IMG/VR virus record: IMGVR_UViG_3300026167_000080
Strand: one strand, 5' to 3'
DNA length: 64,000 bases
From: an uncultured virus (IMG/VR IMGVR_UViG_3300026167_000080)
Taxonomy: Duplodnaviria; Heunggongvirae; Uroviricota; Caudoviricetes
Both the position numbers and the translations under genes were made by a program. Below the pieces are notes generated by a model, which saw only the letters and a program-made list of their open reading frames with translations, ran no database searches and was not told the DNA's origin. Each line of letters opens with the position of its first letter. The first letter of the stretch is position 1. Shown here one piece after another: positions 2,719 through 25,848 of this stretch.

Positions 2719-2790
2719 TGTTACTTTTATGAATTTGACACAAACAATTGATAAACCTAAAACTATTAAAGGCTATTAATTGAAATGAAA

Positions 2791-4824
2791 TTAATCAATA
2801 ACGACTTTAAAGACTTTAGCTTTATTGTCTTTAGAGACTTTACAAATAAAGCTATTTTGTAGAGTAGATGAGAATCCTAACCCATGTAATGGAATTCCTT
2901 TAGGTTCTTTTACTTTTAACTTATTACTAATAGCTTCAAAGATTCTCTTATGGTCAGTTAATAATTCCTCTTTTAAGAATTCATTGAAGAAAGGTTTTAC
3001 ATTAGATTCCTCTTGATCTCTAACACATTCATTTAAGAAAAAGAAGAAGTGTTTATTTCCTATTTTATTACTCCAATAATTGGGAGATAGTAACAAATTA
3101 TTTACCTTATGAAATCTATTAGTACCTAAACCCCATATCTTTTTAGAATTTAATTTAGAAGACTTAAGATTTAAATCTATCTTCTCTTGGATGGAAAATC
3201 CAGATTTCTTACTATAATTTACTAGAGCTACTTCAACTTCTTGACCTTCGTTAATTCGTTTATCATGGTGAAAAGTATGTGTTTTACCATCAAATTCTAT
3301 TTCTACAGTAAAACCTATATCTATTGTTTCTCTAGGTTTAAAGTTAGTAACTCTTATTAAATAAGAACCTTCTAGTAAATTAGCATTATAAGGGTAGATA
3401 ATATTCTCTACAGCAGATCTTGTATTAGCTCTCACATTCATATCAACATCTAAGGACCCTTTAGTTATAATTGACCTACGATTTGCGTAGTAAATCAACT
3501 GGCCGTTAGGTTCAATTATGCTAATGTCTAAATCGTCATAATTATGCCAACTTAAAGAAGCTCTTAATAATCCTTCTACTTTACCTCCAGCCCTTTTAAC
3601 CCTTTCTTTTATAGAGTCAGCTGTCGATCCTCTGTAACACCATGAGAAGTTGTTGTCCCATTTAAATAAACCAGGAGCTTTACAATCCTCAGCAGTAATT
3701 AATGACACAAAATTATTAATATGAGATTCTTGTAATAGTACTTCTAAAGACATAGCTTTAGGTAACATATTTGTAATGAAATCTTCAATTTGAATATTCT
3801 CAGCTTTATTAAAACTAAGAGGATTTTCAATAATATCCTTGCTTAGAGAATCGAATATATCTCCCTGCTCTAAATAACTTCTATCAGTAAAGATAATATT
3901 GTCTAATTCTAGATCATCCATAATTGCATAACGACGATCTAAAGCTGATGTTAATCCTAACTTTTCTATAGTATCTTTAGCTTTATTTAAAGTAGTCGTA
4001 GTAACAATTGGATTAGGTCTCTTATAGTTAGAAGGGGCCATTACTGTTTCAAAAGCCTTGACAGCTTTTTCAAGATCCATATCTGAACTCAAGTTTATTA
4101 ATAATGTCCCAATAGCAGTATTACGTATACGGGATAAAAATGGACTTAAAGTTGAGTTCTTCCAATAGAAGTTATGTCTTAATTCATCTGGACATTCTTT
4201 ATGCTTATTCTTTAAAGAATAAAAAGTATTTACTAATTTCTTAAACTCATTTCCTCTATATAAATTGTTAGATTCAATTAAATCTAAAGTTTGCTCCACA
4301 GCCTCATCAGATATAGATTCTAATGACCTTCTTAATACAGATTTAGAAGTAATAGCCTCACCCATTTTTCTTGATAACGATAGGTGGCTATCATTAAAAA
4401 TATAGCTCTTAGAAGAAGTAGCCATTTGAATAAACAGATGATGCCATAATGTTCGATCCATACTGTAGTTCTGACTAGTACCTAAAGCAATACGATTGGT
4501 CAAAAATAAACTATTGACCTTTTTACTGGTCACAAGCTTATCCAATTCTTTAAATACTTCTTTATAATAATCCTCTACACCTTCTAATTCCATATCCCAT
4601 ATGGACTGTAAAGTATAATCCTCTTTAATAAATACAAGATTTCCATAATTATGTAAAAAGGATTTACATGCGTTACAGTTATTTATCTTTTGTTCTTCTT
4701 TAGGAAAGCTTTGTATATAACAATCCCATATCTCTCCTTTATTAACATCGGTTAGAAATACGAAAGTATTCTCCGCAAGGTTTATAAAGTTTCTACTTAA
4801 CTGATTTTTGACTAACTTAAACAT
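2791..4824 (-). CDS. conserved large-phage hypothetical protein (CxxC; YfaP/DUF2135-like SLSWxNxDDLD segment)
   Basis: 677 aa; NCNACKSF, RASLSWHNYDDLDI, GSLDVDMN, AVENI. Confidence 0.65.
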   Translation of the reverse strand: MFKLVKNQLSRNFINLAENTFVFLTDVNKGEIWDCYIQSFPKEEQKINNCNACKSFLHNYGNLVFIKEDYTLQSIWDMELEGVEDYYKEVFKELDKLVTSKKVNSLFLTNRIALGTSQNYSMDRTLWHHLFIQMATSSKSYIFNDSHLSLSRKMGEAITSKSVLRRSLESISDEAVEQTLDLIESNNLYRGNEFKKLVNTFYSLKNKHKECPDELRHNFYWKNSTLSPFLSRIRNTAIGTLLINLSSDMDLEKAVKAFETVMAPSNYKRPNPIVTTTTLNKAKDTIEKLGLTSALDRRYAIMDDLELDNIIFTDRSYLEQGDIFDSLSKDIIENPLSFNKAENIQIEDFITNMLPKAMSLEVLLQESHINNFVSLITAEDCKAPGLFKWDNNFSWCYRGSTADSIKERVKRAGGKVEGLLRASLSWHNYDDLDISIIEPNGQLIYYANRRSIITKGSLDVDMNVRANTRSAVENIIYPYNANLLEGSYLIRVTNFKPRETIDIGFTVEIEFDGKTHTFHHDKRINEGQEVEVALVNYSKKSGFSIQEKIDLNLKSSKLNSKKIWGLGTNRFHKVNNLLLSPNYWSNKIGNKHFFFFLNECVRDQEESNVKPFFNEFLKEELLTDHKRIFEAISNKLKVKEPKGIPLHGLGFSSTLQNSFICKVSKDNKAKVFKVVID

Positions 4825-9049: not shown

Positions 9050-12000
9050 TTAACTCCTTTTAGCTATATCAAATTCTATTTTATCTTCATCCTCCCATTC
9101 TTTAGGTATAGCAATAGGTTTAGAGAAAATATATCCTTGTATATCATTACACCCTAATTCCTGTAATAAATCTAGTTGACTTGTACTATCTACTCCTTCA
9201 GCTACTACATCTAAATACAAAGTATGTGCTAATCCAATAATAGCTTTAATAAATCTAATACTCTTTTTATCTAAATCAAATTCTTTTATAAATTTCCTAT
9301 CAATCTTTAATACATCTATAGGTAATTGACTTACATAACATAGTGATGAATATTTCATACCAAAATCATCTAAATAGATTTTCAATCCCATATCTCTTAA
9401 AGCAGTTAAAAATAGTTTACAATGGGAAAGATTATCAATCGCAATACTTTCTGTAACCTCAATCCCTAAATTAGGAATTAACTCTTTATTCCAATACCTT
9501 GTTATATTATCCGTTAATTGTCTCGCATTAGAATTAGTGAGAAAATGGTTCCCACTTACATTAATATTCAATCCTATGGGTTTATAGCCTTTTTCCATCC
9601 TTTTCTTATTAAGATTACCTATTAATTTAAAAGCTTTCTTCATTACTTCTAAATCTAAATATATTATCATTCCTGTCTGTTCTCCTACTTGAATGAATTC
9701 TTCTGATAATCTTAATGATTTGTTATTCTCTTCATCTAGTATTGTATATCTCATTAACGCCTCCACATAAATCATCTGTCTAGTAGAAACGTCTACAATA
9801 GGTTGAAATAATACTTCTATCTGCTCATCATCACTTTTAACTATATTGTTAATACGGGCTTCTTCAGTTAGAAGAATATTTAATTTATCTGATATACGTT
9901 GGGTATAATTAACTACTTGCAAGTTCTCTTTCTTCGATTCATTTAAGGCTAAACTTGCTTCTGATAATAACTTTTCACTAAATTTAATATACTCTTTAAA
10001 ACATTGCTCTGGACCATTTTTAGTGTTATCATCTTTCTTTACACAATATTGGGTATCTAAATGGCTAGTACCTATATTACATTCTAAATAGACCTGATAT
10101 CTGCTGTCATTAACTTTTATTAGAAAGGGGACTTCAGTTATAGCTAATATTTTGTCGATTATATTTTGGATCTCTTGATCTTCATGATCTAGTAATATAA
10201 AAGCGAATTCATTAGACTCTATATGTAATAACTTGATTCTATCTTTATTAAAATCGCATATTAATTTTAATCTACCAGCTAGTTCTTTAATCAGTTTATC
10301 GCCAATAGATCTGCCATAATTGTCGCTATATAACTTAAATCTTTTTATACTTAAAAGTAATAAACTAACTTTATTACCAAACAGATTACACATGTCTCTC
10401 TCTAGCCAGGTCCAATTAGGTAAGGATGTTAAACTATTTATTCTGTACCTTTCTATGAAAGATGAACTACTGTTAAAGATAACTGCATACCCTTTGAACT
10501 CTTTATCGTTACATCTAATATGATTAGATATATCAATATTTTCCTGTCTTCTTGTATATAAAGTAATTATATTTATCAGATTATCTTCTGATAATTCTTC
10601 TTCATTAACTTTACTAGGTATATCATAAGGCGTCTCAACAATTTTTATATCCTTTTCATCTTTATCTGTACTCCCTTCCTCTATCTGATTGCAATATGAC
10701 TCTCTATTGTCAGATTCAGTAATAAAATCAAATAAGCATTTGTATTCCTTTTTAAAGTAATATTTATTATTTCTGCTATATACGTAATTCTCGCCTGCTG
10801 CGTTTATTAATATGACTTCTTTATCTGAGTTCAATACCACTAAAGCATCATCACTTATTCTCAATAAACTCTTAATATTGTCATATATTAATTCATCAAT
10901 TGAACTAATATCTTTTTCGCTCTTGTCTAACCTTTCATCACTAGCTTTATTATTAATATGCTGTGATATAAAAGGCCAATAAACTCCATTTCTTATATCT
11001 ATAACATCAGAGCTACTAAAGTCTTTAATATTACTTAGATTTCTGTATTTATATTTCTTGCCAATCGTCTTTGTAATTATTCTATTATCGCTCTCTTCAT
11101 AAATATAAGTATTTGTACAAATGTCTCCAATAAACCAAATATCATTTGAACTATTTGGATTAGCATTGTTGACTTTATGTTTAGCAAAATTTACCTGTAA
11201 CTCTAAAGGATTTATATAAGGGTAAATATTATAAGCCGGTAGGACACCATTAAAAGTACAAGTCTCTTTTAATAGCTTTAAGTGTTTTATATAAGACTTT
11301 AAGCCAAACAAATATAAATCTGAATTTACTGATTCTCTATTGTTTGAAAAAGCTTTTTCATTCGGATTATATGTATGACTTTCTAAAAGGCTGATACTAC
11401 TACTATTTAATACTTTCTCTTGCTCTTGCTCTTGCTTTTCCTTTTCTTCTTCTAAATTTCTATAATCTAATCCTCTATGTTTATCATTTTTATCATGTTT
11501 ATCTACATAATTAGATTTGTATCGGACAGCTACATTACTGACCAGTATACTCACTGCTAATTCTAGATCTCTTATGTCTCTATATAACAATTTATAAACA
11601 TTGTTACCAATTAAAGACGAATTGTTATTTATGTAAACATAATCTTTATTTATATACTTATAGGTCCTGAAATACTGCCATTGACCTGAAGATAATCCTA
11701 GTAAACATAAAATTAAATCTATATCTTCTAATCTCCCAATTCTTAAGGCCTCTTCAAAGTCGTCAACTATTATTAACTTAGCCCCTAAAGCTAACATGTC
11801 CCGCTTTAATTTATCTTCTCTTTCAGTATCTATATCTCTAATTATCAATAAACAAACTATTGACTTCTTATAGCTGATATTAACTTTGTCTTTAATATCT
11901 TCACTAAATTCACCTTTCTCATAACGAGGTTTAGAATTAGACGTGGCTTTAAACGTAGAGCTTATAGTCGGGATATAAGAAGATTTGGTATTTAATATAT

Positions 12001-12583
12001 AATTTGAATTACTATAAGTTGAATTTACTTCAAAGGACGGACTTAACTTCCCAATATTTACTATATCGACTTTGGCAAAGTCTGAACTGATAGGATTTCT
12101 ACTGACTATAAAGTTGTTAAGTTCATCCTCATTATATTTATAAGGTGGCTCCCAATACTGTCCATTTATACTATGACTCGCTTTTCTATATGAATTAGTC
12201 TCGTTTAATTCTATAGACCCTTTTGCTCCTGCCTCTGCCTCATTTCTTTTATCTTTATTATTTCTATGATTTTTAACTAGACCTTTGACTATACTCTCCC
12301 TTCTTACTTTAGAGTCGGATCCTTTCTTATGTCTTTTGTTAAGACCATCTAATACTTTCTTAGATAATTTCCTTGATAATAGATTTATATGGCCTATTAA
12401 TGTCGAACTTTTTATATGAACTTCATCTAAAGAATATAGTTTATCTATTTTTCTATTGAAAATATTACTGTCTTTAATACTAGTTAATATATATATAATT
12501 GATTGAATTATTTCAATGCCTACATTGAAGTTGAAATTAGAGTTGAAATTCATGATAATAATAATGATGATAGTGACAAGCAA
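9050..12583 (-). CDS. EAL-domain c-di-GMP phosphodiesterase with degenerate GGDEF and PAS-like/REC-like N-terminal segments
   Basis: FQPIVD, EALMR, INVS, IEVTE, LDDFG, LKIDR, VAEGV, QGYIFSKP intact; GGDEF site reads ESNEF; true start may be the downstream ATG (MNFNS). Confidence 0.9.
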   Translation of the reverse strand: MLVTIIIIIIMNFNSNFNFNVGIEIIQSIIYILTSIKDSNIFNRKIDKLYSLDEVHIKSSTLIGHINLLSRKLSKKVLDGLNKRHKKGSDSKVRRESIVKGLVKNHRNNKDKRNEAEAGAKGSIELNETNSYRKASHSINGQYWEPPYKYNEDELNNFIVSRNPISSDFAKVDIVNIGKLSPSFEVNSTYSNSNYILNTKSSYIPTISSTFKATSNSKPRYEKGEFSEDIKDKVNISYKKSIVCLLIIRDIDTEREDKLKRDMLALGAKLIIVDDFEEALRIGRLEDIDLILCLLGLSSGQWQYFRTYKYINKDYVYINNNSSLIGNNVYKLLYRDIRDLELAVSILVSNVAVRYKSNYVDKHDKNDKHRGLDYRNLEEEKEKQEQEQEKVLNSSSISLLESHTYNPNEKAFSNNRESVNSDLYLFGLKSYIKHLKLLKETCTFNGVLPAYNIYPYINPLELQVNFAKHKVNNANPNSSNDIWFIGDICTNTYIYEESDNRIITKTIGKKYKYRNLSNIKDFSSSDVIDIRNGVYWPFISQHINNKASDERLDKSEKDISSIDELIYDNIKSLLRISDDALVVLNSDKEVILINAAGENYVYSRNNKYYFKKEYKCLFDFITESDNRESYCNQIEEGSTDKDEKDIKIVETPYDIPSKVNEEELSEDNLINIITLYTRRQENIDISNHIRCNDKEFKGYAVIFNSSSSFIERYRINSLTSLPNWTWLERDMCNLFGNKVSLLLLSIKRFKLYSDNYGRSIGDKLIKELAGRLKLICDFNKDRIKLLHIESNEFAFILLDHEDQEIQNIIDKILAITEVPFLIKVNDSRYQVYLECNIGTSHLDTQYCVKKDDNTKNGPEQCFKEYIKFSEKLLSEASLALNESKKENLQVVNYTQRISDKLNILLTEEARINNIVKSDDEQIEVLFQPIVDVSTRQMIYVEALMRYTILDEENNKSLRLSEEFIQVGEQTGMIIYLDLEVMKKAFKLIGNLNKKRMEKGYKPIGLNINVSGNHFLTNSNARQLTDNITRYWNKELIPNLGIEVTESIAIDNLSHCKLFLTALRDMGLKIYLDDFGMKYSSLCYVSQLPIDVLKIDRKFIKEFDLDKKSIRFIKAIIGLAHTLYLDVVAEGVDSTSQLDLLQELGCNDIQGYIFSKPIAIPKEWEDEDKIEFDIAKRS

Positions 12584-12860
12584 CTTTATCCTGTCTTTGG
12601 CTTAAACTTTTATTAAGTCTATTCCTTTATAATCTCATTCCTTTATTCTCTTACATCTATTCTCTTCATCTCTATACTCATTTTGTTTCTTATTATGTAC
12701 TACCTTTATTATTATCTGAGTTTGTAAGATATACTTTTTATTCTTTTTATTATATATTTACTGCTCACCTCTCCTCATCACAACATTAATCCTATACGTG
12801 TAATCCTAAGCTTCCCTATGAGTAACTAAAAGAAGTCATTCCATAGTAAATCCCAAATAT

Positions 12861-12915
12861 TAAATACTAAACATTAAATACTAAACATTAAATACTAAAC
12901 ATTAAATACTAAATA
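12861..12915. repeat. tandem repeat (TAAATACTAAACAT)x3 plus partial copies
   Basis: Directly visible 14-nt unit. Confidence 0.85.
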
Positions 12916-13899
12916 CTAGATACCAAATCCTAAATACTAAACACCAAATTCTTTAAGTATTCACAAAGTATTTTATAAGTTCTGCGCTACTAGTTACATC
13001 AGGCTAAAAAGTAGCTGGAAAATACATCTTAAAGTATGTGCGGCTATAGTAACTTTCAGCCATTCGTTTTATATAAAACTTTTCCTGTCTAAGTACTGTC
13101 TCAGGCTTTTCTATCTGGAAATGTATTGATAATTTATTCGTAAAACATTGCTATTTTTAGACCCCTGGACGGGCATTTAGCTGGGTATAAAGGTTTGACT
13201 ACTTTATAAACGAGTCTATAGTCGCTTTCTGATACGTTAATGAGTTTTACTATTTCAATATTTACTCTATAAATTGAGTCTATATATTAACTTATAAGTC
13301 TGTTGATATATATATATATCAATTTATATTAGTTGAGTATCAATTCATATAACCTAATGAATTTGGTGGTTGTTTCACTCGCTATAATTAGTAATTTGAA
13401 TTGAGCTGTCTCAGTTCGATCTCAGTTCGATTTTAATTAAACAATAATAAAAATGGGCCCCTCCATCCCTCTTCCTCTTCTTATGATTACAATCCTATGT
13501 TACTTTATTTATCCTATATTATATTCCAATTGGTGGGAATATCTTACTTAAATAATATAAGTTTATATCTTTCTATATGTATAAAATAATAACTTCTTGG
13601 AAGGTTGATTATTTGTTAATTTATTAACTTATTTATTACTTTTTATGCTTCTATACTATCTATAAATTTATAACACCTTATATCATACATTTTCTTTATA
13701 CAAGATTTTGATGATTATTGTGCCTCCTCCCTCTCTCTTCCTTTATTGAAAATGTAAACTTTGAACACTGAACTTGGTTTGTAAACATAAAGATTGAAGC
13801 TTTGAGATATGAAAATGAAAAATTAAAGATAAAGATATAAAACTTTGATATATAAGGAAAGGATAAGATAACAAGCAAGTAAGCAGGGTATAAATAAAG

Positions 13900-14180
13900 T
13901 CTTAAGATATGAAGCCTTAAGATATGAAGTATAGGATATAGCGGATAAGATATAGAGGGTAAAGATATAAGGGATAAGACATAGAAGATAAGGGTTAAGG
14001 GTTAAGAGTTAAGCTTTAAGATGTAGAAGATAAAAATATAAAGGGTAAGATATGGGGATAAAGATATAAAGGGTAAGATATGGGGGATAAGATATGGGGG
14101 ATAAGAATTGAGTTTTAAGATATAGGGGATAAAGATATAGAGGATAAGAATTGAGTTTTAAGATATAGGGGATAAAGGTT
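13900..14180. repeat. purine-rich imperfect repeat tract (GGGGATAA(A)GATAT-like units)
   Basis: Many copies of GGATAAGATAT/GGGTAAGATAT; GGATAAGAATTGAGTTTTAAGATATAGGGGATAAAG occurs twice. Confidence 0.8.
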
Positions 14181-14532
14181 TATTGTGGAGAGTAAAGTAA
14201 ACAAGGTTTATTTTAATATTTGATACTATAGACTGAAACTTAAGTACGTGACATTATACAAATCTACTTCCCTTCTAGAGATACGTAGAAGTGCATTATT
14301 AAATAAATACTTAATAATAGATTTATAAAGTAAAGATCTAATATTTCAGTAAGTCGTAAATAAATAATAAGCAAGAGTTTAGAAAGTATAAAGAGAAAGA
14401 GAAAGAAAAGGTAAGAAGTAACTCTTAAGAAAAAAGAAGCTTTAGGAATGGATTGAAGTAAATAGTATTTAATCAAATCAAATCCTAAAGCTTAAAATCT
14501 TAATTCAGATCAATTCAGATCCTTGACGTTAT

Positions 14533-15657
14533 CTAACGAGAGAAGAGTTCTTCCCCATCATCATCCTGAGTACTGAAAGCTGGGGCATTAGAAGGCGCAT
14601 CGGCTCCAGCACCGGGAAGACTATTGCTGCTGACAGGGACAGTCTCAATAGAAATCTTCGGACGAGCCGGAGAAGCATTACGCTCTATATCATTCTTAGA
14701 GGTGTTTTGATTACCACCTAAGACTAAAGCCGAAACGTCAATTTGACTAGGATCTACCCCTGAATCTAATTGATCGCTTAAAGTCTTCCGAATGACTCCG
14801 TTATCCCTTAATTCCCGACCTCGGGTAGCCATCTTACGAGCGGTATCTCGGTTAGGCACCTTGGCAGAGGTCTGAGGGACACAAATAGGTTGCTCATAAT
14901 TATTAGAGAGCCAATTCATGAACACGTTCTCAATATGAGAACTATCATAATCCTTTGTCAGCTTATTCTGTAATTCATGAATACTCTCATCCCAGCCCTT
15001 TGATAGTTTAAGAGCTAAGTTATAGATAGCAAGCAAACCTTTATTCCGATTGAAGTCTGGATGTAATCCGGTTAAGGCAGATACCCATTCTTCAACATTG
15101 TCAAGGTCCGGCAGAGAATCCGCTTTGAAGTCCTTATCAGTCAATTGTTGAATCTGGATTAAGAACTTAACGAAGTTCTGAAAGAACTTCAAGTTCTCAT
15201 CTTTAGCCACGCAATCGAGAGCGTAACTCAATGTAGTTTGCCACACTGAATTACGAGGCATTACGTTATAAAGACCTGCAATAGCCCGTTTTTGCAGAAA
15301 GACAAAGATATCTTTCGAAGCTAACCCTTGAGTATTAGGATCCGGCACATAAGCCGGGAGTCCCGAAGAAGTGGTGGGATCCAGGTAAAAGTACAAGTTC
15401 ATAGCTCCTAACCCTTTAGGGTCATCGACATTGGACTCTTTATAAAGACCAATAGAACCATCCTCCTGCCGCATTTGAGGACTTAAAGGATATGCCCGGA
15501 CGAACATAGTCCCTCCCAAATCTTTATCCATATTAGCCAATACCAAACGTGTGGCAACATACAAAGGCGAGCCTTTAGCAGTTGCTGCCATTTGACCCAT
15601 CAGCTCTTTATCGATAGAGCCAGCATTTTGAGTTTGTTGATTTTTAACTTCAACCAT
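14533..15657 (-). CDS. hypothetical protein with acidic C-terminal tail (SSB-like architecture)
   Basis: 374 aa; AGGAGG RBS; GC-richer codons; P/A/S-rich linker ending DDDGEELFSR. Confidence 0.7.
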   Translation of the reverse strand: MVEVKNQQTQNAGSIDKELMGQMAATAKGSPLYVATRLVLANMDKDLGGTMFVRAYPLSPQMRQEDGSIGLYKESNVDDPKGLGAMNLYFYLDPTTSSGLPAYVPDPNTQGLASKDIFVFLQKRAIAGLYNVMPRNSVWQTTLSYALDCVAKDENLKFFQNFVKFLIQIQQLTDKDFKADSLPDLDNVEEWVSALTGLHPDFNRNKGLLAIYNLALKLSKGWDESIHELQNKLTKDYDSSHIENVFMNWLSNNYEQPICVPQTSAKVPNRDTARKMATRGRELRDNGVIRKTLSDQLDSGVDPSQIDVSALVLGGNQNTSKNDIERNASPARPKISIETVPVSSNSLPGAGADAPSNAPAFSTQDDDGEELFSR

Positions 15658-17731
15658 TTTGTTAATTTCCTCCTTATTGGAAATTCAGTTTATTTAGGAT
15701 ATCTTCTTATTTATATACGTTTAATAACCTATATAAAGCTCTTTATTCATATCCTTTATCCTGCTGAGTCTCAGGATTCTTAGTCTATTTCAATTCAACT
15801 TCTTCTTCTTAGTCTATTTCAATTCAACTTATTCTTCTTATTCTTCTTACTCTTCTTCTTCTTCTTCTTCAAATTCTTCTATTTATTATTCTTGTGATTC
15901 AATTAGTTTACTCTATCTTTTACATATAATTCTAATACAAATGTATTAAGTTAATAGTAAAATCCTATAAGGGATTGATGAAGAAAATAGATAAAAAATG
16001 AATGAATTTATGTGCAAGAAAAGATGAATAGAATATATGAAATATATATCAATATTCAATAAGTGTTTTATAAGTATTATATAAATGCTATGCCTGTCTA
16101 TAAGCCTGTCTTACTAATTTAAAAGGGAATTTTAAAAACAATAAAAAATTAAATGGAAGGTTTAAATAATTAAATAGTCAAATAATTAAAAATTAAATAA
16201 GACCACATAGTTTAAATATATAAAGCCATCCCTGTGTTATTCCCGACTGTTTGAATATAAAAATATGCATCTCGCATCATTAAGATTTTTATATATCTGA
16301 CTCTTTGGTTTTGATCAGCTCGTTTATATTTGCAGTAAAGAATCTTTTTATTAATCTGTATGAATCTATATCAATCTGTATTAACCTGTATCAATCTTTA
16401 TTCCATTCATGTTCTTTTCAATCTTTATTAATATCTAATTATTATATTTCTATAACTCTCCTTTATTTGCTCATTAAGAACCCCTTATTTAACTCTTTAT
16501 ATAAAGACTTAAAAATAGAAGAATCATTCGTTGTAGGTACGTTACAAGTTAAGAGAAGAAAGAATATAAAAGACAAAGGTAATGATGAAATATAAGTTAA
16601 TAAAAAGTCTATAGATTGTACTGTTCTCTCTAATATCAGCTCATTCATTGCTTTATATTATCTATCCATTGATAAGTTAAGCTTATAACAAATAATAAAC
16701 TATTCGTTGTTTAATGTTAAATGCTAATTAGTTTCTCTATGCTACTTTAAGACTGTTTCTCTAATTGGTCGATACTCATTTCCTATATAGGAAGTAGCAC
16801 TTTATTTAATTAAAAAGTATATAAGAGAATCTTATATTTAAATAGTAAAAAGTAAAAAGAGAAGATAAAAGGAAAGTCATATAAAGAATGAAGAATTGAA
16901 AAGTATAGAGGGAAAGATAAAACTCTATTCTTCTTAATATAATTCTCATTCTCTATATGACATAAACTGACTCCTTTAAAGGTTTAGTGGCTGTAAGGAA
17001 TCCTCTTAATATTTAATCTTAATTGTCGTAACTAATGTCTTCTTATAAATGAAGATTAATGAAAGGAATATAAAGATGAAAGGGAGATAAAGATAAAAGA
17101 AAGATGAAAGGAATATAAAGATAAAAGGAAGATGAAAAGAAAAAAGAAAGAATGGAAGGAATAGAAAGTAAAAACATAATTAAGGTAAGGATATGAAGGA
17201 TTACTTTTATAAAATGAAAAGAATCTAAAGAACATTGAAAGATTGGATCGGAAGATAAATAGTATAAATGGACTTTACTTAACTTATATAGATCCTCTTA
17301 TTACTATCTACTTTCTCTATCCTGTTACTCTAAAGTATGTTAGGGGTTTCTCTAAAGTATTCTTAAAGATGTTCTAAGATCTATTTCCTATATCCTCTTC
17401 CTTTATATTCATTATATTGTTTACTTACTTATTCACTTCCATCTTTATCAATTAATAAGGAGGATGAAACTCAATTACTGATTCCACCCAAAACTTATAT
17501 AGGTGTTCTCTACCCGTGCTGTAAGGAATCTATAAAACTTTTCTAATAAAGCTTGTCCTGTCCTTTCCTCCTTATTTGATCGAATCTATTTGACTCAACT
17601 TAATCCAATATCTAAATTCTTTAGATGCTTATAAAGATATACCTTATTAATAATATTGCTGATTACTTGCCGATTATCAAAAGACAACAAATGAATTAGT
17701 ATACGCTGTAAGTAATCCGTATTCTTTCAAT

Positions 17732-18346
17732 CTATAAGCACCATCTATCTAAACACAATTCATTTACTCCTCTTAACAAACCTAGATGAAATAACTGACT
17801 ACTAAATATGGATCCATAAGGATTAGATAATCCATTCTCTAATTGTTTTATTAATCCTCTCTTCTTCTTATCGTCTATATCCATATCTTCTACTAAATGA
17901 AAAGGATCTATCTCTAAATGTCTTAATACATAATAGGCCCATCCTATTACCGCTAATGTATTTGAATATATTATTCTTTCATCTATCAATCTATTTCTAT
18001 TTGATCCATATACTATTCTCTCTATACTCTCCTCTACATTTCCACTTATTTCCCTTCTTATCTCTCTCGGTATAGTTGCTAAATTACCTGCCTTACGTAA
18101 TATAATACCTATCTTTGCTCCTTTACTAAATAAAACTCTTCCTCTCTCTATAACACATTTTGATGCACTCTCTCTATTCTTTATATTCTCTTTATTCTCT
18201 TTATTCTCTATTAACTCTGTCTCTATTCCAATACTTTCTATAAACTTTATTACTCTATTAAAATCCTCTTCTCCCAATCCCAATTCCAATCCTTCTCTTC
18301 CCAGCGTCTCTTTATTTGATTCTATCCTTTCCTCTTTAACTGCCAT
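17732..18346 (-). CDS. zincin-like (HEAGH-family) protein with lost metal ligands, inside the array
   Basis: RVIKFIESIGI...IERG...GIILRKAGNLATIP...LAVIGWAY...LEIDP resembles proteins carrying GDLLHEAGHLA. Confidence 0.55.
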   Translation of the reverse strand: MAVKEERIESNKETLGREGLELGLGEEDFNRVIKFIESIGIETELIENKENKENIKNRESASKCVIERGRVLFSKGAKIGIILRKAGNLATIPREIRREISGNVEESIERIVYGSNRNRLIDERIIYSNTLAVIGWAYYVLRHLEIDPFHLVEDMDIDDKKKRGLIKQLENGLSNPYGSIFSSQLFHLGLLRGVNELCLDRWCL

Positions 18347-18425
18347 TTCTCTTTATATATTTAATATCTATCTTAATGATCAATACTTATCTTAAGGATT
18401 TATATCTAATATATGTACTTGTTAC

Positions 18426-18462
18426 CCAAACGGCGCCTTACCCGTCACCGACTGTAAGGAGG
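18426..18462 (+). repeat. GC-rich element copy 1 (CCAAAYGGCGC-N-CCGACYGTARGGAGG)
   Basis: Second copy at 22551-22585; mini-hairpin with GTA triloop. Confidence 0.6.
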
Positions 18463-19541
18463 TGTCCGTTAATTCTAAGATTTATTAATCCCTAATATTT
18501 AATTGTTAATCTTCATTTATTAGATTCTTTAGGTTTTAAGTCTTTAAGTCTTCAAGTCTCTAAGTCTTTAAGTCTTATCCCTCAGTCTTAACACTCAGTC
18601 TTAGACTTTTAATCGCTTATTAAACTCTAAGGTATAGAGGAGGCTGCGCCGCTACCAGACACAATAAAATTAATATGTATAGAATAACTACTAAAGGTTT
18701 ACTTTAGATAATCCAATTTAAAGATGAAATGATATAGGGAAAGAAAAGGAAAGAAAAGAAAAGTCAGTGAGATACATCTTTCCCTTAATTAAAAGGAATG
18801 ATTAAGATATATCTCATCAGACTGATTAGTGTATTGCCAACCTAGCAAGTTCACACTGACTCCTTCCCATGACCGCTCGATAGGAATCACATTTTGGTGC
18901 TGTAAGGAATCCAATTAATTTTTATTGAAATAGTAAAGAATTGAAATAAAAGAATTGTTGAATAGAAGAGAAATAGTAAAGAATTGAAATAAAAGAGTAG
19001 GGTAAGTCTAAATAGATATACCCTACATATTCACATATTTACTTATTCAACAATTAACCACGGTCTACTAACTCCTTTTATTGGTATCAGAGGGCTTGCT
19101 GTAAGGAGTTTATATATTCAGCATTAATTGAAATAATTGTTATTGTATTGTAGTGTATTGACTTAATAAAGATCAACTTAAATCTTCTGATTCCATTTTA
19201 TTAGGAGGGAAAGTTAGAAAATAATCTATGCTGTAAGGAATCCATATAATTTTATATTTTTAATACACTCTCATATTGAATGGAAAGAAAAGCAATTTAT
19301 AACGGACCTGACTCCTAATATTATGACTAGGTTCATATAATGAAATGCTGCAAGGAATCTATTATTAATGCTGTAAGGAATCTATTATTAATATTGACCC
19401 ATAAATGGATATATAAAAGAAACAATATAAACTGAAAAATGATGTATCTGATTCCTATGACTGGTCTAGGAGAGAGAGAGGATTTACTCAAAGTGCTGTA
19501 AGGAATCTACAATTTATAAATTATTAAAAGTAAAAGGAATA

Positions 19542-19590
19542 AATTTGGTTATTAGTAATAGAAAGTCTATTATTAACTAATAACCAAATT
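19542..19590 (-). terminator. 15-bp perfect inverted repeat downstream of array unit 9
   Basis: AATTTGGTTATTAGT / ACTAATAACCAAATT. Confidence 0.5.
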
Positions 19591-19755
19591 GAGATGAGAA
19601 CTCTATTTGACAAGAACGAACAGACCTGATTCCATTTATTAACCCGGTACATAGAAAGTCCTGCTGTAAGGAATCTTTAATCAATGTTCAAATAGGCTTC
19701 TAATACTTTTCACTAACCTTCAATTAATCTTTAAACAATATTAAAGTAATTAGTT

Positions 19756-20589
19756 TTAAACAAATTGATAAGGCTGAATCGTAATAAAAGGATCTTGATC
19801 ATAATCAAGAAGAGGATTCACTTTTAATAATGGTTGAAAGCTACCGTCATTTATTCTAGTTATTTGTATTAAGTCTTGTAATGACTCATTATACAGCTTG
19901 TAATGACTCATTATACAGTAGGCAGTATTAAATATTAAATCTATTAATCCTATTTCAATAATTATTTTGTAAGGGTCAATATTAAATATCAATTTAAAGG
20001 AAGATATTTCTACTCTCTCATTATCAATTCCTAATATTAATCCGTTTAATGCCTCTTTTAATACTTCATGTTCCAATAAAGATTGGGCTTGATCATAATC
20101 ATCTCTTGATATCCAAATACTATTTTCTAAATATGTCTTCTTTATACAACTTCCTTTTAGATGTACTGGTGCCCTTGTATATATTTCTAAGGTCTTCTCT
20201 TTAAGAACATCGTATTTCTCTTCATATAACAATTCTTCTTCTATACTTATACCTTGTAATTCATATTCTTTATTTTGTAAAGCTCTCTCTATCAATATCT
20301 GTGTTAATTCTTGGTTATTAGTACTTAATAACAAATCTTCCTTCAATATATACCAATGAGTATTTTTACCTTGTACAGATAAAGAATATATCTCACCATT
20401 CTCTCTATTAACAACTCTTATCTCCTTACTATTTAGAGATAATGGTAAAACTATAGTTCCACCACTAAATATACATTCAATAGTTAATTCTAATTGCTCT
20501 AAGTCAATCTCTGCATACATATTGTTTCTTCTCTTTATATTTATCTTTATATTTATATTTATCTTTATATTTATCTTTAATATAATCAT
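19756..20589 (-). CDS. hypothetical protein
   Basis: 277 aa ORF; probable start at internal MYAEID because the N-terminus overlaps a simple repeat. Confidence 0.6.
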   Translation of the reverse strand: MIILKINIKININIKINIKRRNNMYAEIDLEQLELTIECIFSGGTIVLPLSLNSKEIRVVNRENGEIYSLSVQGKNTHWYILKEDLLLSTNNQELTQILIERALQNKEYELQGISIEEELLYEEKYDVLKEKTLEIYTRAPVHLKGSCIKKTYLENSIWISRDDYDQAQSLLEHEVLKEALNGLILGIDNERVEISSFKLIFNIDPYKIIIEIGLIDLIFNTAYCIMSHYKLYNESLQDLIQITRINDGSFQPLLKVNPLLDYDQDPFITIQPYQFV

Positions 20590-20722
20590 TCATTAGTCTA
20601 ATCTACCTATCCTAATCATTTATAATTAGAGTATGTCTTGACTTTAATGGCCAATTCTATAAGCTATTTATAAATATTTATTCAATCAAATTATAAATCT
20701 TTATTCAATCAAATAGAAAGAA

Positions 20723-21178
20723 ATGAAATATCAACATTCAGAAACACAAGCATTGAGAAAGAGTATTGATCAAGTAAAAGTAGTCCAACATTTATTGGCA
20801 TCATCTCAAATAGCTTTATTAAATAGACAACTAAATCATGACTCTACTAAATTAGAAAATCCTGAATGGCGTAGGGTTCTTTATAAATTTGATAAAGAAC
20901 AATTCCCTATGTCAGATAAGGATTTAGAACAAGCTCAACATCATCATTATGCTCATAATAGACATCACCCTCAGAGGTTTGAAAATGGTGTAGATGATAT
21001 GCATATTATAGATATAGTAGAGATGATTATCGATTGGATTGGTGATGCTTATTGTGATAAAGAAGATCCTATTGAAGCAGTTAAACGTAAATCAGAAAAG
21101 TATAATATTAATCCTCAATTGATGAATATCTTTCTTAATACTGTTGAATGGGCTCAGAATGAAGCCTATATGTTCTAA
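20723..21178 (+). CDS. DUF5662-like / HD-like metal-binding protein
   Basis: HDSTK, HHHYAHNRHHP, M..IDIVEMIIDW motifs. Confidence 0.7.
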   Translation: MKYQHSETQALRKSIDQVKVVQHLLASSQIALLNRQLNHDSTKLENPEWRRVLYKFDKEQFPMSDKDLEQAQHHHYAHNRHHPQRFENGVDDMHIIDIVEMIIDWIGDAYCDKEDPIEAVKRKSEKYNINPQLMNIFLNTVEWAQNEAYMF

Positions 21179-21302
21179 GTAAACCTTTGTTAATTAGTCT
21201 ATTGATTATTCAATTCAATTCAATTGAATTGGAACTGGTACTGGAACTGGAACTAGAATGGGATTGGGAATGGGAATGAGGTGGATTAAATTAGTTAATT
21301 AA

Positions 21303-21911
21303 TCATGAAGAATAGCTTATTCTTTTAATACGATAAACATAACCATCATCCAAATCATTTGAAGTAATGATAATTTCATTGGATAACTGATCGTAAATAC
21401 ACCCTATTTCATATAGGATTTGTGAATGATAACCAAATTCATCTAGACTGAACTCTAAAAGTAATTTACTCACTAATCCTTCAGAAAGACTTAAAGGATA
21501 ATAATCAAAGAATAAATATAGTTCTAATGTATTCTTCTCTGAATATAATAGGAACTTTATTGTGAAAATCTCACTACTTCCATCATCATTTACTGCCACT
21601 TCAACATCGGTTATTAAAAAGATTTCTCCATATTTGTTAATGATTTGTTCTTCTATAAATTCATTAATGGCTTCTCTTACTTCAGGCACCTTGTCTTGTA
21701 CAGTATTATATTGGATACTTATACTATTCTCATTGTCTATTAGCAACCATTTTATAAACCCAAAGTATCGTAGTCTATAAAATATCTCATAATCTTTCCC
21801 TTCAACTGTCTTAGATATATGGACTAGATCTCTATCTAAAACCTTTGGTAAAGTTATAAATCCTAATTTAAATAATTCATTTAAATTATCTGATAATTTG
21901 TTAATATCCAT
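21303..21911 (-). CDS. hypothetical protein
   Basis: 202 aa ORF. Confidence 0.6.
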   Translation of the reverse strand: MDINKLSDNLNELFKLGFITLPKVLDRDLVHISKTVEGKDYEIFYRLRYFGFIKWLLIDNENSISIQYNTVQDKVPEVREAINEFIEEQIINKYGEIFLITDVEVAVNDDGSSEIFTIKFLLYSEKNTLELYLFFDYYPLSLSEGLVSKLLLEFSLDEFGYHSQILYEIGCIYDQLSNEIIITSNDLDDGYVYRIKRISYSS

Positions 21912-21936
21912 TATTATCTATTACTTCCCTTTGCAT

Positions 21937-22395
21937 TCAATTTATGAATGTGTCTAATTGCTTTATCAACCTCTCGTATTCCTGTTCCAATTCATCATAA
22001 AATGGTACTTGATTGAATTGAGAAAGTTCACATTCGTAGAATACACAATATGCCGCTATATTCTTTGTGAATTCTATATACCCTAATGTAAGAGATTCGT
22101 AGATATAAGTCTCTATAAGGTTTAATAAATATACTTGACTAAACACTCTTTCTATATATAGAATATGTTTCTCTACTATTAACGGATTATTCTCTGAATA
22201 TGTATATTCATAAATACTCTTTATACAATAATCCTTTTCTATCCAATTACCTTCTGAATCTTCTATACTTTCTTCAAATTCATATTGCTCTAAGATAGCT
22301 CTATATATCTCTTCTCTTACTCTACATCGATCTATTAGATTTACTATCCATATTGAAAAACTTATCTCTTTATTAGACGGTATATACAAATCCAT
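21937..22395 (-). CDS. hypothetical protein
   Basis: 152 aa ORF. Confidence 0.6.
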   Translation of the reverse strand: MDLYIPSNKEISFSIWIVNLIDRCRVREEIYRAILEQYEFEESIEDSEGNWIEKDYCIKSIYEYTYSENNPLIVEKHILYIERVFSQVYLLNLIETYIYESLTLGYIEFTKNIAAYCVFYECELSQFNQVPFYDELEQEYERLIKQLDTFIN

Positions 22396-22550
22396 TAGTC
22401 TCTATCTCTACACTTTGCCTTTTATTTGCAACCTATTTGACCCTATTTACTTACTCCCTTTATCCTTATATAGCTATACTCTAATCTTATTGATCCTAGA
22501 CTTATGCATCGATTATCTTACTTTGTTAAATACTTATTATTACTTCATAT

Positions 22551-22585
22551 CCAAATGGCGCTGCCAGCTGCCGACCGTAGGGAGG
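22551..22585 (+). repeat. GC-rich element copy 2
   Basis: CCAAATGGCGC-tgccagctg-CCGACCGTAGGGAGG, matching 18426-18462. Confidence 0.6.
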
Positions 22586-22659
22586 CTTAAATGCCAACGT
22601 TCCTTAAATTAAAGGCTCTATAACAATCAATAGGATATATATAAATCTATAAGGTAAAT

Positions 22660-22929
22660 CTATAAGGAACATATATGTTCAAATATAGGAACACCTTTGT
22701 CAGTTAAGGAAAGGAATTCTTTAATAGGTCTATCCCATATACATTTATCTCCAAACTCATCAGAATAGTATAAGGCTTGATATATTACTTTTCTTAATTG
22801 GGGATTACCTGAATCTCTGGATACATTGAGTACTCTATAATAATTACCTTTGTAATGTTTATATATACCATTTAGTACTACGACTCTACTATCTGGTTCA
22901 TTGACTTCTATATTGCCTGTCTGTGACAT
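22660..22929 (-). CDS. DUF1653 family protein
   Basis: GIYKHYKGNYYRVL...VIYQALY...WDRP..EF. Confidence 0.85.
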   Translation of the reverse strand: MSQTGNIEVNEPDSRVVVLNGIYKHYKGNYYRVLNVSRDSGNPQLRKVIYQALYYSDEFGDKCIWDRPIKEFLSLTDKGVPIFEHICSL

Positions 22930-22968
22930 CTTAAATATTATTTATCTATTGTAAGAATAAAGAAATCA

Positions 22969-23110
22969 GTGAAGTACCCAACGCCAACGCTTTACTTTTG
23001 GCGTGGGCTTCCTGGTTCAATGACAATTGCCGCTACCAGAAACAGTTTCCAGCTTTGGTCTTACATCGTCTCCACAGGCTAAAACGCCACTTCCTGACGC
23101 TAAGAAATAG
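22969..23110 (-). ncRNA. putative TnpB omegaRNA (reRNA) scaffold
   Basis: Expected position overlapping tnpB 3' end and right-end hairpin; 5' boundary approximate. Confidence 0.55.
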
Positions 23111-24171
23111 TCACGCAAATTTAGAGCTGCATTGATATCTCTATCATGCAACTTTGTACAGTTGGGGCATTCCCAAGTTCTAATCTGTAGAGGCATTGAT
23201 TTCATTCGATGCCCACAACAATTACAAGTCTTGGAACTGGGGAAAAATCGGTCTACAAACTTAACGACTTTCCCAAGTTCCAAGGCTTTGTACTCAGTTA
23301 GAGTTTGCAGCAATCCCCAGGCAGCATCGTTAATCGATTTCGCTAAACAATGATTGCGAGTCATACTTTTGATATTTAGAGTCTCAAACACGATGACTTG
23401 GTTTTCGTCCACTAGCTTGCGTGAAAGCTTGTGATGAGAATCTAAACGACAATTTGCAATTTTATTGTGAACTTTAGCGACTTTTAATCGGGCTTTGTTG
23501 CGATTAGCAGAACCTTTAGTTTTACGAGATAATCGCTTCTGGTGTTTCGCTAACTTCTTTTCATACTTTCGATAGAACTTGGGCGGTTTAATCTTTTCAC
23601 CATCGCTGGTAACGATTAAGGCATCTAAGCCTAAATCAATACCGATAACTTTACCCTCTGTTGATTGTTCGGGAAATTCTCCAGGTAACTCAATTCTGAG
23701 AGAGGCAAAGTATTGACCCGATGGGGTCATCGAAACCGTAACAGATTTTATTTTACCCTTGATTTCTCGATGAACTTTGGCTCGGACTTCACCAAGCTTA
23801 GGAAGTTTAATAGAGCGTTCATTAATTTGAAACCCTTGAGGATAAGTTGCAGATTGCTTTCGATGCTTTGACTTAAATCTTGGATGCCTACCCGTCCCTC
23901 TAAAAAAGTTCTTGAAAGCTGTCTCTAAGTTTTTAAGCGATTGCTGTAATACTTGACTGGCAACTGTGCTTAACCAAGGTAATTCTTGTTTGAGAACGGG
24001 TAATTGATTGGCGCATTTTGTGTAACTTAATCCTTTACCCGTTTTCTCATAAGCCTTGTTCCACTCATCAAGAAACCGATTAAATACAAACCGAGCGCAT
24101 CCAAACTCTCTTGAGAGTTGAATGCGTTGTTCTGCGTCTGGATATAACCGGATTTTTAGAGAGGTAAACAT
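23017..24171 (-). CDS. tnpB: RNA-guided endonuclease TnpB
   Basis: N-terminal HTH (KIRLYP...FGCARFVFN), RuvC motifs GIDLG / VFETL / DRDINAA, CxxC...CxxC zinc finger. Confidence 0.95.
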   Translation of the reverse strand: MFTSLKIRLYPDAEQRIQLSREFGCARFVFNRFLDEWNKAYEKTGKGLSYTKCANQLPVLKQELPWLSTVASQVLQQSLKNLETAFKNFFRGTGRHPRFKSKHRKQSATYPQGFQINERSIKLPKLGEVRAKVHREIKGKIKSVTVSMTPSGQYFASLRIELPGEFPEQSTEGKVIGIDLGLDALIVTSDGEKIKPPKFYRKYEKKLAKHQKRLSRKTKGSANRNKARLKVAKVHNKIANCRLDSHHKLSRKLVDENQVIVFETLNIKSMTRNHCLAKSINDAAWGLLQTLTEYKALELGKVVKFVDRFFPSSKTCNCCGHRMKSMPLQIRTWECPNCTKLHDRDINAALNLRDYFLASGSGVLACGDDVRPKLETVSGSGNCH

Positions 24172-24794: not shown

Positions 24795-25301
24795 TTATTT
24801 ATATTGATCTTTAAGATACCAAAATAGAATAGACCACCTTTCTTTATTCAACTTTTCTGTTGCATGTAAATGTTTACAATTAAATTCAACAATATCTCCT
24901 TTCTTTAATCTATATCCTACATATTCCTTGGAAGGATCATCATTTATATAAAATATACATTCAGTCATATTTATACAAACAGCCGTCTTAAAGAAGACTG
25001 TATGATCTCTATGAGGATTAATATTTGAACCAGAGGGATAGTAAAGACAAAGACCAATATCAAAATTAGATAAACAAAGATTGCCTAAAGAAGTTATAAA
25101 TTCATCTTCATAAGCAGGATGTAAAGTAAACGATTTCTTAAGATCACATTTAGTTTTAATCCATAATTCCTGTCTACCTCTAGCGTAAGAACTAATAGTT
25201 GGAGATAGTAAAGGTTGTATAGATTGACACCAATTAGATAATTTATTTATTGACTCTTCTGTTAGACTTCCCTTCTTCTTTACTAGTTTTCTATTATCCA
25301 T
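24795..25301 (-). CDS. 2OG-Fe(II) dioxygenase (AlkB-like)
   Basis: Y.....INPHRD (HxD), distal H in HAT, R in ERWSILFW. Confidence 0.8.
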   Translation of the reverse strand: MDNRKLVKKKGSLTEESINKLSNWCQSIQPLLSPTISSYARGRQELWIKTKCDLKKSFTLHPAYEDEFITSLGNLCLSNFDIGLCLYYPSGSNINPHRDHTVFFKTAVCINMTECIFYINDDPSKEYVGYRLKKGDIVEFNCKHLHATEKLNKERWSILFWYLKDQYK

Positions 25302-25365
25302 ATCTCCTGTCTCCTGTCTTTAATAAAAAATAATTAAATAAATAGAAACAGGCATTTTGAAAGAT

Positions 25366-25848
25366 TTATCTTTTAATTAAAGTATCTTCTCCGTCTAAGA
25401 AATCGGAGTACTGTCCTTCTACGTATTTAAACTTTACTAGATCTATGTATTGATATAAGAAGACCATCTTAGATTGTTTTAGATCAAAAATTCTTATACC
25501 CGGAATTTCGGGTGGATCATAATGTATCTCTGCTAAATCATGGATACTGAGATGCTCTAATGCCATTACATTATTAGCATAAGTAGAACCTTCAAAGAAT
25601 GATGTTTTATCCACCTCTAATAATGTCCATACAAAATCACTATCTACACAATAGTACAAAAGATTACTGGGTAGATGGATGGATGCATTATCTATTATTG
25701 GATTAGTGGCTGATATTGCTATATCTTCTAAATCAACACTAACCAATACCGTATTTTCTAATATTCTTAGTGAAGACAGTTCTTGAAGAACTAATTCTTC
25801 ATCTTCTATTTCAATCTTATCGTCGGGAATAAATATTAATATCTTCAT
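25366..25848 (-). CDS. hypothetical protein
   Basis: 160 aa ORF. Confidence 0.6.
   Translation of the reverse strand: MKILIFIPDDKIEIEDEELVLQELSSLRILENTVLVSVDLEDIAISATNPIIDNASIHLPSNLLYYCVDSDFVWTLLEVDKTSFFEGSTYANNVMALEHLSIHDLAEIHYDPPEIPGIRIFDLKQSKMVFLYQYIDLVKFKYVEGQYSDFLDGEDTLIKR

Follow-up and report, generated by a model that had tools for sequence, protein, structure and literature searches.

Ro60 is a ring protein that forms particles with Y RNAs in animals, some bacteria and a few phages, and in these particles the Y RNA tethers or gates the ring. YrlA RNAs, which combine tRNA-like domains with a GNCGAAN0-1G motif, were described by Chen et al. 2014 (PMC4201824), who reported them in 254 bacteria and 22 phages, encoded on the strand of a Ro60 gene and no more than 4 kb away from it. 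The phage Ro60 studied in the phiLo paper (PMC12135203) is reported there to bind two phage Yrl RNAs as well as host PNPase. Class I RNAs (Rfam RF01414) were described by Kjellin et al. 2021 (PMC7919456) as stable, abundant RNAs of 42-65 nucleotides (nt) from clustered genes, which start with AAG, end with CUGU, and have a short end-joining stem, an 11-nt motif by the 5' arm and a conserved first G. The class was published there as unique to dictyostelids, and in the portions of that paper used here Myxococcus xanthus is the only bacterium named as searched. We analyzed a 64,000-nt stretch of DNA (the window) from an uncultured virus, IMG/VR record IMGVR_UViG_3300026167_000080, in which an initial annotation had noted a cluster of small-RNA-like units. 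Our results indicate that these units are a ten-copy, minimal member of a Y-RNA-like family that seems not to have been described.

Ten stem-and-handle units on the minus strand

The array was confirmed. The initial annotation listed nine units, and all nine were found where it placed them, with the loop lengths that it gave (15, 32, 38, 35, 22, 35, 31, 39 and 29 nt); its count fell one short, as a tenth unit, w0, was recovered (Table 1). The minus-strand order within each unit is G-N5, then UUACAGC, a loop of 15-39 nt that no other unit shares, N5'-C and AG, and the arrangement behaves as had been described, with a constant stem and UUACAGC handle around a free loop. The spacing between units is irregular (119-1197 nt). 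Together they occupy 3.4 kb and are the shortest and most numerous units seen in the family, with loops that contain no tRNA-like arm or module. In w7 the handle occurs twice, at 19347-19359 (one change, UUGCAGC) and at 19370-19382 (exact, giving a 54-nt loop), and this 23-nt tandem duplication of handle and flank looks like a recent slippage event.

When up to two mismatches were allowed, the 13-mer GATTCCTTACAGC had 11 matches, all on the minus strand within 16332-19675, compared with a mean of 1.36 in shuffled sequence, and none of 100 shuffles reached 11. At three mismatches the count did not discriminate (27 vs 17.3). A covariance model trained mostly on the window units (R1) retrieved exactly these ten units from the 64 kb at 35.5-50.7 bits, and the next match scored 13.8 bits. 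Changes in the stem are compensated in w3 (GAUUAC/GUAAUC), w5 (AACUCC/GGAGUU) and w0, the first two being the cases of covariation already pointed out in the initial annotation. For the 8-base-pair (bp) helix of 15 units (ten from the window and five from relatives), 93.3% of cells were paired and five pairs changed on both sides, and 0 of 500 shuffles reached any of five measures. The terminal stem was also kept in the minimum-energy fold of all ten window units.

Several features bear on the strand. Units w0, w1, w4 and w7 contain a U-G pair that is valid only on the minus strand; the initial annotation had seen this in the last three. Four hairpins exceed their shuffles in stability by a wide margin (z -4.4 to -7.0), and on the minus strand a U-rich tract comes after each. 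Three of them correspond to the long hairpins noted earlier, which proved real (z -5.8, -5.1 and -7.0), and the fourth follows unit 5 (z -4.4). Because the units are co-oriented with genes here and in every relative, because their G-U pairs are valid only on the minus strand and because hairpin and U tracts follow four of them, we read the units as putative minus-strand small RNAs, in agreement with the initial proposal.

Table 1. Units, hairpins and adjacent open reading frames (ORFs) of the array; R1 and R2 are the covariance models described in the text
Feature	Positions	Strand	Remarks
w0	16297..16344	-	GAUUCU-UUACUGC-27 nt-AGAGUC-AG; R1 41.2 bits, R2 29.8 bits; missed in the initial annotation
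w1	16967..17002	-	GAUUCC-UUACAGC-15 nt-GGAGUC-AG; R2 27.3 bits
w2	17478..17530	-	GAUUCC-UUACAGC-32 nt-GGAAUC-AG; R2 25.6 bits
w3	17659..17717	-	GAUUAC-UUACAGC-38 nt-GUAAUC-AG; R2 27.1 bits; starts 14 nt past the stop codon of the 204-aa ORF
w4	18856..18911	-	GAUUCC-UUACAGC-35 nt-GGAGUC-AG; R2 18.0 bits, weakest
w5	19068..19110	-	AACUCC-UUACAGC-22 nt-GGAGUU-AG; three compensated pairs; R2 24.0 bits
w6	19187..19242	-	GAUUCC-UUACAGC-35 nt-GGAAUC-AG; R1 50.7 bits, R2 34.5 bits, best
w7	19308..19382	-	23-nt handle duplication; R2 23.1 bits (long form)
w8	19448..19507	-	GAUUCC-UUACAGC-39 nt-GGAAUC-AG; R2 22.6 bits
w9	19626..19675	-	GAUUCC-UUACAGC-29 nt-GGAAUC-AG; R2 25.9 bits; first unit downstream of the 277-aa ORF
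Long hairpin and U-rich tract, terminator-like	16876..16961	-	After w1; -29.7 kcal/mol, z -5.78
Long hairpin and U-rich tract, terminator-like	18764..18826	-	After w4; -24.7 kcal/mol, z -5.10
Hairpin and U-rich tract, terminator-like	18985..19022	-	After w5; -14.7 kcal/mol, z -4.41; absent from the initial annotation
Hairpin and U-rich tract, terminator-like	19542..19590	-	After w9; -18.6 kcal/mol, z -6.99
204-aa ORF	17732..18346	-	Inside the array; no family match; w3 and w2 just downstream
277-aa ORF	19756..20589	-	Directly upstream of the array; no family match

Relatives of the units and a linked Ro60-like protein

At least 17 contigs of viral or metagenome origin carry the signature (A)AG-stem-(U)UACAGCAA-variable loop-stem-C-UG(U), and so do 39 of 80 loci from bacteria or archaea and two named phages, Listeria phage LP-064 and Salmonella phage Si3; it always lies on the strand of the genes. 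Family members share a 6-8 bp end-joining stem, with (U)UACAGC(AA) unpaired immediately after the 5' arm, as well as a free loop and a tail of the form C-WG(U), and the consensus obtained from the relatives is (A)AG-stem-(U)UACAGCAAA-loop-stem-C-UGUU. Loops in the relatives range from ~20 to ~290 nt and are A-rich or contain tRNA-like modules. The initial annotation had proposed a covariance model as a check, and the models built here recover the ten units in the window and also match units in related loci.

A strict pattern scan yielded no loci in the viral collection and 18 in the metagenome collection, among which L013 was the only true relative; the other 17 were rejected as single chance-like matches in contigs of 40-68% G+C. 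L013 is a 1.2-kb fragment of 29% G+C with three units on the gene strand, one of them abutting a tRNA-Ile gene, and its stems differ and are compensated (GAUUAC/GUAAUC, GAUUUCC/GGAAAUC and GAUUCC/GGAAUC). Looser scans, from which in the viral collection we kept only loci with several stem-closed units or R2 matches, gave further arrays in L142, L144, L206, L240, L261, L274, L287, L325, L285, L232, L299, L300, L220, L258 and L293. Most other matches of these scans were rejected as conserved coding sequence and coding repeats, and L035 was left out of the counts as a single unit (R1 32.1, R2 26.6 bits) that is apparently antisense coding DNA. Four units follow a tRNA cluster in L053, where the unit at 2876-2990 has a 96-nt loop with a T-arm, a closed acceptor-like hairpin and a D-arm. 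L261, a CheckV-complete 126-kb phage, carries at least eight head-to-tail units on the minus strand (1750-3250) directly downstream of a DUF7788 gene; their motif varies (UACAGCAA, CACAGCAA, AACAGCAA), and several loops contain T-arm-like GGUUCGAAUCC modules. As a separate observation, the tRNA model matched stretches of 115-120 nt in L240 (2159-2277 and 2370-2489) and L274 (2373-2488) at 42-53 bits, with an insert of ~45 nt past the anticodon position that carries a [C/A]ACAGCAA motif. They represent either tRNAs interrupted by a short insert or members of the RNA family with the shape of a tRNA.

Covariation was also found in homologous loci, as the initial annotation would have it. In 28 relative units aligned to R1, a fit that favours pairing, the six stem pairs were paired in 157 of 157 cells, 61 cells changed on both sides compared with 16.8 in shuffles, and the covariation score was 0.925 vs 0.248; 0 of 500 shuffles reached the paired cells, the double-change cells or the score. 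A cruder count of pairs with any double change gave 6 vs 4.6 and was reached by 67 of 500 shuffles. For a second covariance model (R2), 24 units from 17 loci served as the training set, with the window and L013 excluded. Searched against the 64 kb with filters off, R2 placed the window units at ranks 1-10 (34.5-18.0 bits, E 5.6e-5 to 0.28), and the 11th match scored 15.6 bits. The L013 units scored 38-45 bits with this model.

Results from two approaches link these RNAs to one protein. Among 17 contigs found by RNA pattern alone, 15 encode a protein with DUF2828 and DUF7788 (vWA) beside the units or on the same record, the exceptions being the 1.2-kb fragment L013 and L206, whose array reaches the contig end; tRNA genes lie on the same strand in 7 of the 17, within the piece fetched around the units. 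In the opposite direction, starting from 189 protein relatives in genome contigs, of which 80 loci were kept, R2 gave 56 matches at E <= 0.01, spread over 39 of these 80. Every one of the 56 is on the strand of the DUF2828/DUF7788 gene, 46 lie within 700 nt upstream of it by our tally, and 33 of the 39 matching loci contributed no row to the training of R2.

We examined the protein by fold prediction. An AlphaFold model from a five-sequence alignment (pLDDT 73.4) had Ro60/TROVE chains as all of its 13 best fold matches in PDB, the best being Thermus phage phiLo Ro60 (E 7e-10, TM 0.46-0.50); the set also includes D. radiodurans Rsr, Xenopus Ro60 and human Ro60. A sequence search against PDB was not significant, with Ro60 at E 0.22, so that the fold comparison alone is clear. 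By its predicted fold, the DUF2828/DUF7788 protein is a Ro60-like ring protein, of a branch that Pfam does not file under TROVE. This branch is large, with at least 8000 proteins at E <= 0.001, and members occur in 710 phage records, among them those of Felix O1-type, P100/A511-type, Staphylococcus, Campylobacter, Enterococcus and Vibrio phages as well as mycobacteriophages, in which homologues are annotated as 'Ro-like RNA binding protein'. The DUF2828 gene of Listeria phage LP-064 has three units 70-340 nt ahead of it and a gene for an RtcB-like ligase 1.3 kb downstream; in Salmonella phage Si3, units lie within the tRNA cluster behind the DUF2828 gene. In a giant-virus bin (L287/G008, 1.6 Mb), a DUF7788 protein scores 170.5 bits and two units lie near it (40.5 and 19.1 bits, from different models), and thus the protein-RNA pair is also found in a bin assigned to a virus of eukaryotes. 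The family is present in phages that are tractable in the laboratory, namely Listeria phages of the P100/A511 type and phages of the Felix O1 type.

A published study of phage CKA15 (PMC12282133) describes three non-coding regions, very abundant and unexplained, in the 2 kb that precede an Rsr-like gene. The DUF2828 protein of this phage, CKA15_055, has been detected in virions. The three-unit segment of LP-064 maps to 25,276-25,577 of phage cka15, inside this 2-kb interval and outside 26,236-26,727, the only abundant region with printed coordinates. The latter is described in that study as the most transcribed, unexplained non-coding region, with spurious ORFs CKA15_059-061. In LP-064 (L419, 1471-2022) we observed a match to Rfam ROOL RNA (87.4 bits, cut-off 99.1, E 7e-17), and by offset this stretch falls at ~26.2-26.7 kb in cka15, that is, on region 26,236-26,727. 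Because the sole region with printed coordinates corresponds to ROOL RNA, it is plausible, and not more than that, that the published CKA15 expression includes the units themselves.

Genomic setting and alternative explanations

The source of the window looks like a large phage, judging from its genes. The DNA is A+T-rich (25-40% G+C) and densely coding, the minus strand carries 57 of the 62 ORFs of at least 100 amino acids (aa), and the source contig extends beyond the window to at least 119.5 kb. A 677-aa protein belongs to PHROG 1735, with homologues in 549 phage records, and other genes encode a thymidylate kinase, a GIY-YIG endonuclease and a RecD/Pif1-type helicase. Most window ORFs had no family match (Pfam on 63 ORFs and phage family comparisons), and the window DNA had no match to phage records at E <= 1e-5. 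Ten DNA runs labelled as soil metagenome contain the stretch, whole or in part. Contigs of four of these runs differ from it at ~28 positions over 4.1 kb, with none in stems or handle and three in loops, numbers too few to weigh, and they show no joints and no unit-sized gains or losses.

The array lies in a gene-poor, repeat-rich stretch of ~7 kb at 12.6-19.8 kb. Tandem repeats occur there at 12833-12952 (period 14), 13919-14175 (period 14-15 nt), 17052-17141 (period 11-17) and 18537-18576 (period 8 nt), and these blocks may be iterons or an origin. The 8-nt repeat accounts for the strongest matches to phage and plasmid records, namely to Borreliella plasmids and Propionibacterium phages. A G+C-rich element on the minus strand at 18425-18470, in the 5' leader of the 204-aa ORF, presents the near-handle CCUUACAGUC in the loop of a short CACC/GGUG hairpin; further G+C-rich patches lie at 18620-18660 and 22560-22610, and neither R1 nor R2 matches any of the three. 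Three other minus-strand genes deserve mention. A 374-aa ORF (14533-15657) is isolated in a non-coding stretch, with G+C above its surroundings; it has no Pfam or PHROG match, and its sole match among 5.8 billion proteins is itself. A 1177-aa protein with GGDEF and EAL domains (cyclic-di-GMP turnover) is encoded at 9050-12583 on this phage-like contig. A TnpB gene (23017-24171; OrfB_IS605, Cas12f1-like TNB and HTH domains) lies in locally G+C-richer DNA, is flanked by structured sequence and looks like a recent IS605-family insertion unrelated to the array.

From our analysis, the ten units are probably small Y-RNA-like RNAs that combine a handle for protein binding with a variable module. They would be genes for structured RNAs of ~36-75 nt, read from the minus strand and released either where the conserved AAG and CUG(U) flank them or at the hairpin and U tracts. 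Since the conserved neighbour of the family is a Ro60-like gene, often in tRNA clusters, the stem and UACAGC may form a handle that binds the Ro60-like ring protein. The loop would be the variable module, and the RNA might tether or gate the ring protein as Y RNAs do, with a presumed effect downstream. The partner of the window units would be encoded outside the 64 kb or by the host.

A number of results weigh against this interpretation. We found no DUF2828, DUF7788 or TROVE gene in the window by tblastn (nothing at E <= 10) or among 63 ORFs by Pfam; hmmsearch for Ro60-like genes gave at most 2.5 bits, and hhalign with 25 ORFs at most 1.5% probability. A tRNA scan of the 64 kb found zero genes. 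The window handle, UUACAGC, lacks the Ro60-binding motif GNCGAAN0-1G or GGUCCGA, as defined by Chen et al. 2014. The window units also depart from the family consensus, in that they do not conserve the AA that follows AGC and, in ten of ten cases, end in AG and not UG(U). One of them reaches just E 0.28 with R2, and R2 itself is not fully independent, because its training units were gathered with the window-trained R1, the model to which the 28-unit alignment was fitted as well. A scan for sigma-70-like promoters showed no enrichment (22 vs 25.8 expected), a terminator scan by a G+C-rich rule found none, and no RNA runs were listed as containing the stretch, all 10 being recorded as DNA. Finally, we found no published binding of any family member to a DUF2828 protein.

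The absence of a partner gene from the 64 kb, together with the brevity and number of the window units, whose loops of 15-39 nt hold no tRNA-like module, would also suit a decoy or sponge, in which ten minimal handles without effector modules occupy and disable a host DUF2828/Ro60-like protein while the phage has no copy of its own. DUF2828 genes are found in many bacterial genome contigs (189 relatives), and thus a host copy is possible. However, the contig is at least 119.5 kb long, so that a phage-borne partner may lie beyond the window, most of the bacterial matches resemble prophage or phage-bin contigs with tRNA clusters, and we saw no sign of a host protein acting against phages; we consider a sponge unlikely. 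It is rather improbable, too, that the stem and motif are cis-acting punctuation marking cleavage sites in long transcripts (tRNA clusters, mRNAs), with no function for the free RNA. The strand-specific linkage to one protein gene (56/56) and the long tRNA-like loop modules would not be expected of such sites, and the look-alike Class I RNAs are reported as stable and abundant (Kjellin et al. 2021, PMC7919456). Nonetheless, the packing of units would agree with punctuation: in relatives they run head to tail, with 5-12 nt from a CUGUU tail to the next AAG head and tRNAs interleaved, those of L013 abut a stop codon, a tRNA and a ribosome-binding site, and w3 begins just behind a stop codon.

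The initial annotation favoured a programmable guide or antisense repertoire, in which the loops pair with nucleic-acid targets for an effector that holds the handle. The loops are indeed all different and spacer-like at 15-39 nt, and three strain differences fall in them and none in stems or handle. Their longest match within the window is 13 nt and CT-rich. In phage and plasmid records, searched as had been suggested, no match falls in a loop among the matches listed (for the six-unit cluster, the best 15 of 37 and best 15 of 109; for the whole array, the best 12 of 75 and best 12 of 78); any perfect match of at least 27 nt in the phage collection would have been listed, and the host genome was not among the sequences searched. 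Furthermore, loops across the family, A-rich or tRNA-like in content, vary in length from ~20 to ~290 nt, the fold predicted for the linked protein is that of Ro60 and not of a nuclease, and the TnpB element of the window has its own, unrelated ends. Altogether, we regard the guide repertoire as very unlikely. Of lower probability still, and in our judgment scarcely credible, are sites that act as DNA, such as recombination sites of the attC kind, mobile-element ends, iterons or phage-polymerase promoters. An inverted repeat with a variable centre is an attC-like layout, and the stretch around the units is poor in genes and rich in tandem repeats; on the other hand, in four units some pairs hold on one strand only, as G-U or G-T, the units always point the same way as the genes, the linkage is to a Ro60-like protein and tRNAs and not to an integrase, and the contigs of four runs lack joints or unit-sized changes.

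Comparison with described RNA systems

CRISPR mini-arrays, TIGR arrays, omega RNAs and bridge RNAs have in common with the units a clustered constant handle and variable segments of spacer size. In contrast to CRISPR-type arrays, the variable part lies inside a hairpin and not between repeats, the arms are inverted and not direct, the spacing is irregular, no cas, tas or recombinase neighbour is present among the window ORFs, and the loop searches described above revealed no targets. An omega-RNA origin was considered and dropped, because the ends of the TnpB element are richer in G+C and bear no likeness to the handle.

The likeness to Y RNAs is closer. The family and Y RNAs (YrlA, RF02553, and Yrl1/Yrl2 of phiLo) share a stem that pairs the ends, and the terminal stem with a large internal loop is present in the units. 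They also share their siting near, and on the same strand as, a gene for a Ro60-type ring protein, often by tRNA genes; this trait was seen in the 15 of 17 contigs and in all 56 matches, and is absent from the 64-kb window. Some members, such as L053 2876-2990 and those of L261, have tRNA-like loop modules as Y RNAs do, and the RtcB-like ligase gene of LP-064 is a further likeness to Y RNA loci. One unit, L144 872-984, matched YrlA at 32.9 bits (cut-off 69) and was the only one to reach that score; there were no YrlA matches in the window. The two differ in the handle, which is (U)UACAGCAA in the family and GNCGAAN0-1G or a CGAA motif in Y RNAs, and in the partner, which belongs to the DUF2828/DUF7788 branch here and is a TROVE-type Ro60 there. 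A different handle would thus pair with a different and very large branch of Ro60-like proteins.

The initial annotation could match the units to nothing known. This was too strong a statement, as relatives score 15-39.7 bits on RF01414 and 32.9 bits on YrlA, but all of these scores are below the cut-offs, and Rfam 15 has no family for the units besides the sub-threshold Dictyostelium match. A match to a known Rfam family had been named in advance as an outcome that would speak against the proposal, and because of these sub-cut-off matches it has come about by half. Our literature searches for the literal handle motif and for DUF2828 gave no relevant description of such an RNA.

With Class I RNA, the architecture and consensus of the phage family are nearly the same, and the described traits fit almost point for point. 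The RF01414 consensus is GaUcuC-CUUACAGCAA...GagAuC-UG. Class I genes, like the phage units, are clustered in intergenic DNA, with products of 42-65 nt. The scores of relatives all remain below the 41.5-bit cut-off; the best, 39.7 bits, is in the CheckV-complete 126-kb phage, and L013 units score 23.2-27.3 bits. The window units gave no match on RF01414 at E <= 5 or E <= 10; for the window, the Rfam gathering search was empty, and an E-value search of 12500-23200 returned a chance miRNA match only. The stem trait is present, with 6-8 bp in 10 of 10 window units and G as first base in 9 of 10. For the 11-nt motif CCUUACAGCAA, the window has CCUUACAGC in seven units and one-letter variants in w0, w3 and w7; its last two A's are not conserved in the window, and relatives have UUACAGCAAA. 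The AAG start and CUGU end were not found in the window, where nine of the 10 units have a C-AG tail, w5 has U-AG, and the heads read RG; relatives L053, L261, L142 and LP-064 have AAG or UAG heads and CUGU tails. The DUSE promoter element, whose consensus we take to be CCCAYAA, was not found upstream on the minus strand in any of the 10 window units.

The two groups differ in their carriers, which are phages, bacteria and one giant-virus bin here and dictyostelids for Class I, in the tail (AG in the window vs UGU), and in the protein: the direct binder of Class I RNA is the RRM protein CIBP/Rnp1A, and the linked protein here is Ro60-like. The likeness may be either homology or convergence. 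Our tentative suggestion, which we hold to be possible rather than likely, is that Class I RNAs are not a dictyostelid invention, and instead could be a eukaryotic branch of a prokaryotic and viral family that partners DUF2828-type Ro60-like proteins. If so, dictyostelids would have acquired them from phages, prey bacteria or giant viruses. The family would hold the first candidate Class I RNAs outside Dictyostelia, for a class that has no known mechanism and is tied to the origin of aggregative multicellularity. Possible kinship with the Dictyostelium RNAs is thus the most interesting lead, and if true it would make the Class I mechanism testable as that of a Ro60-like ribonucleoprotein, for which the first candidate would be DDB_G0281243, an uncharacterised protein from the DdR-21 pull-down that is named in the literature only by the Kjellin preprint.

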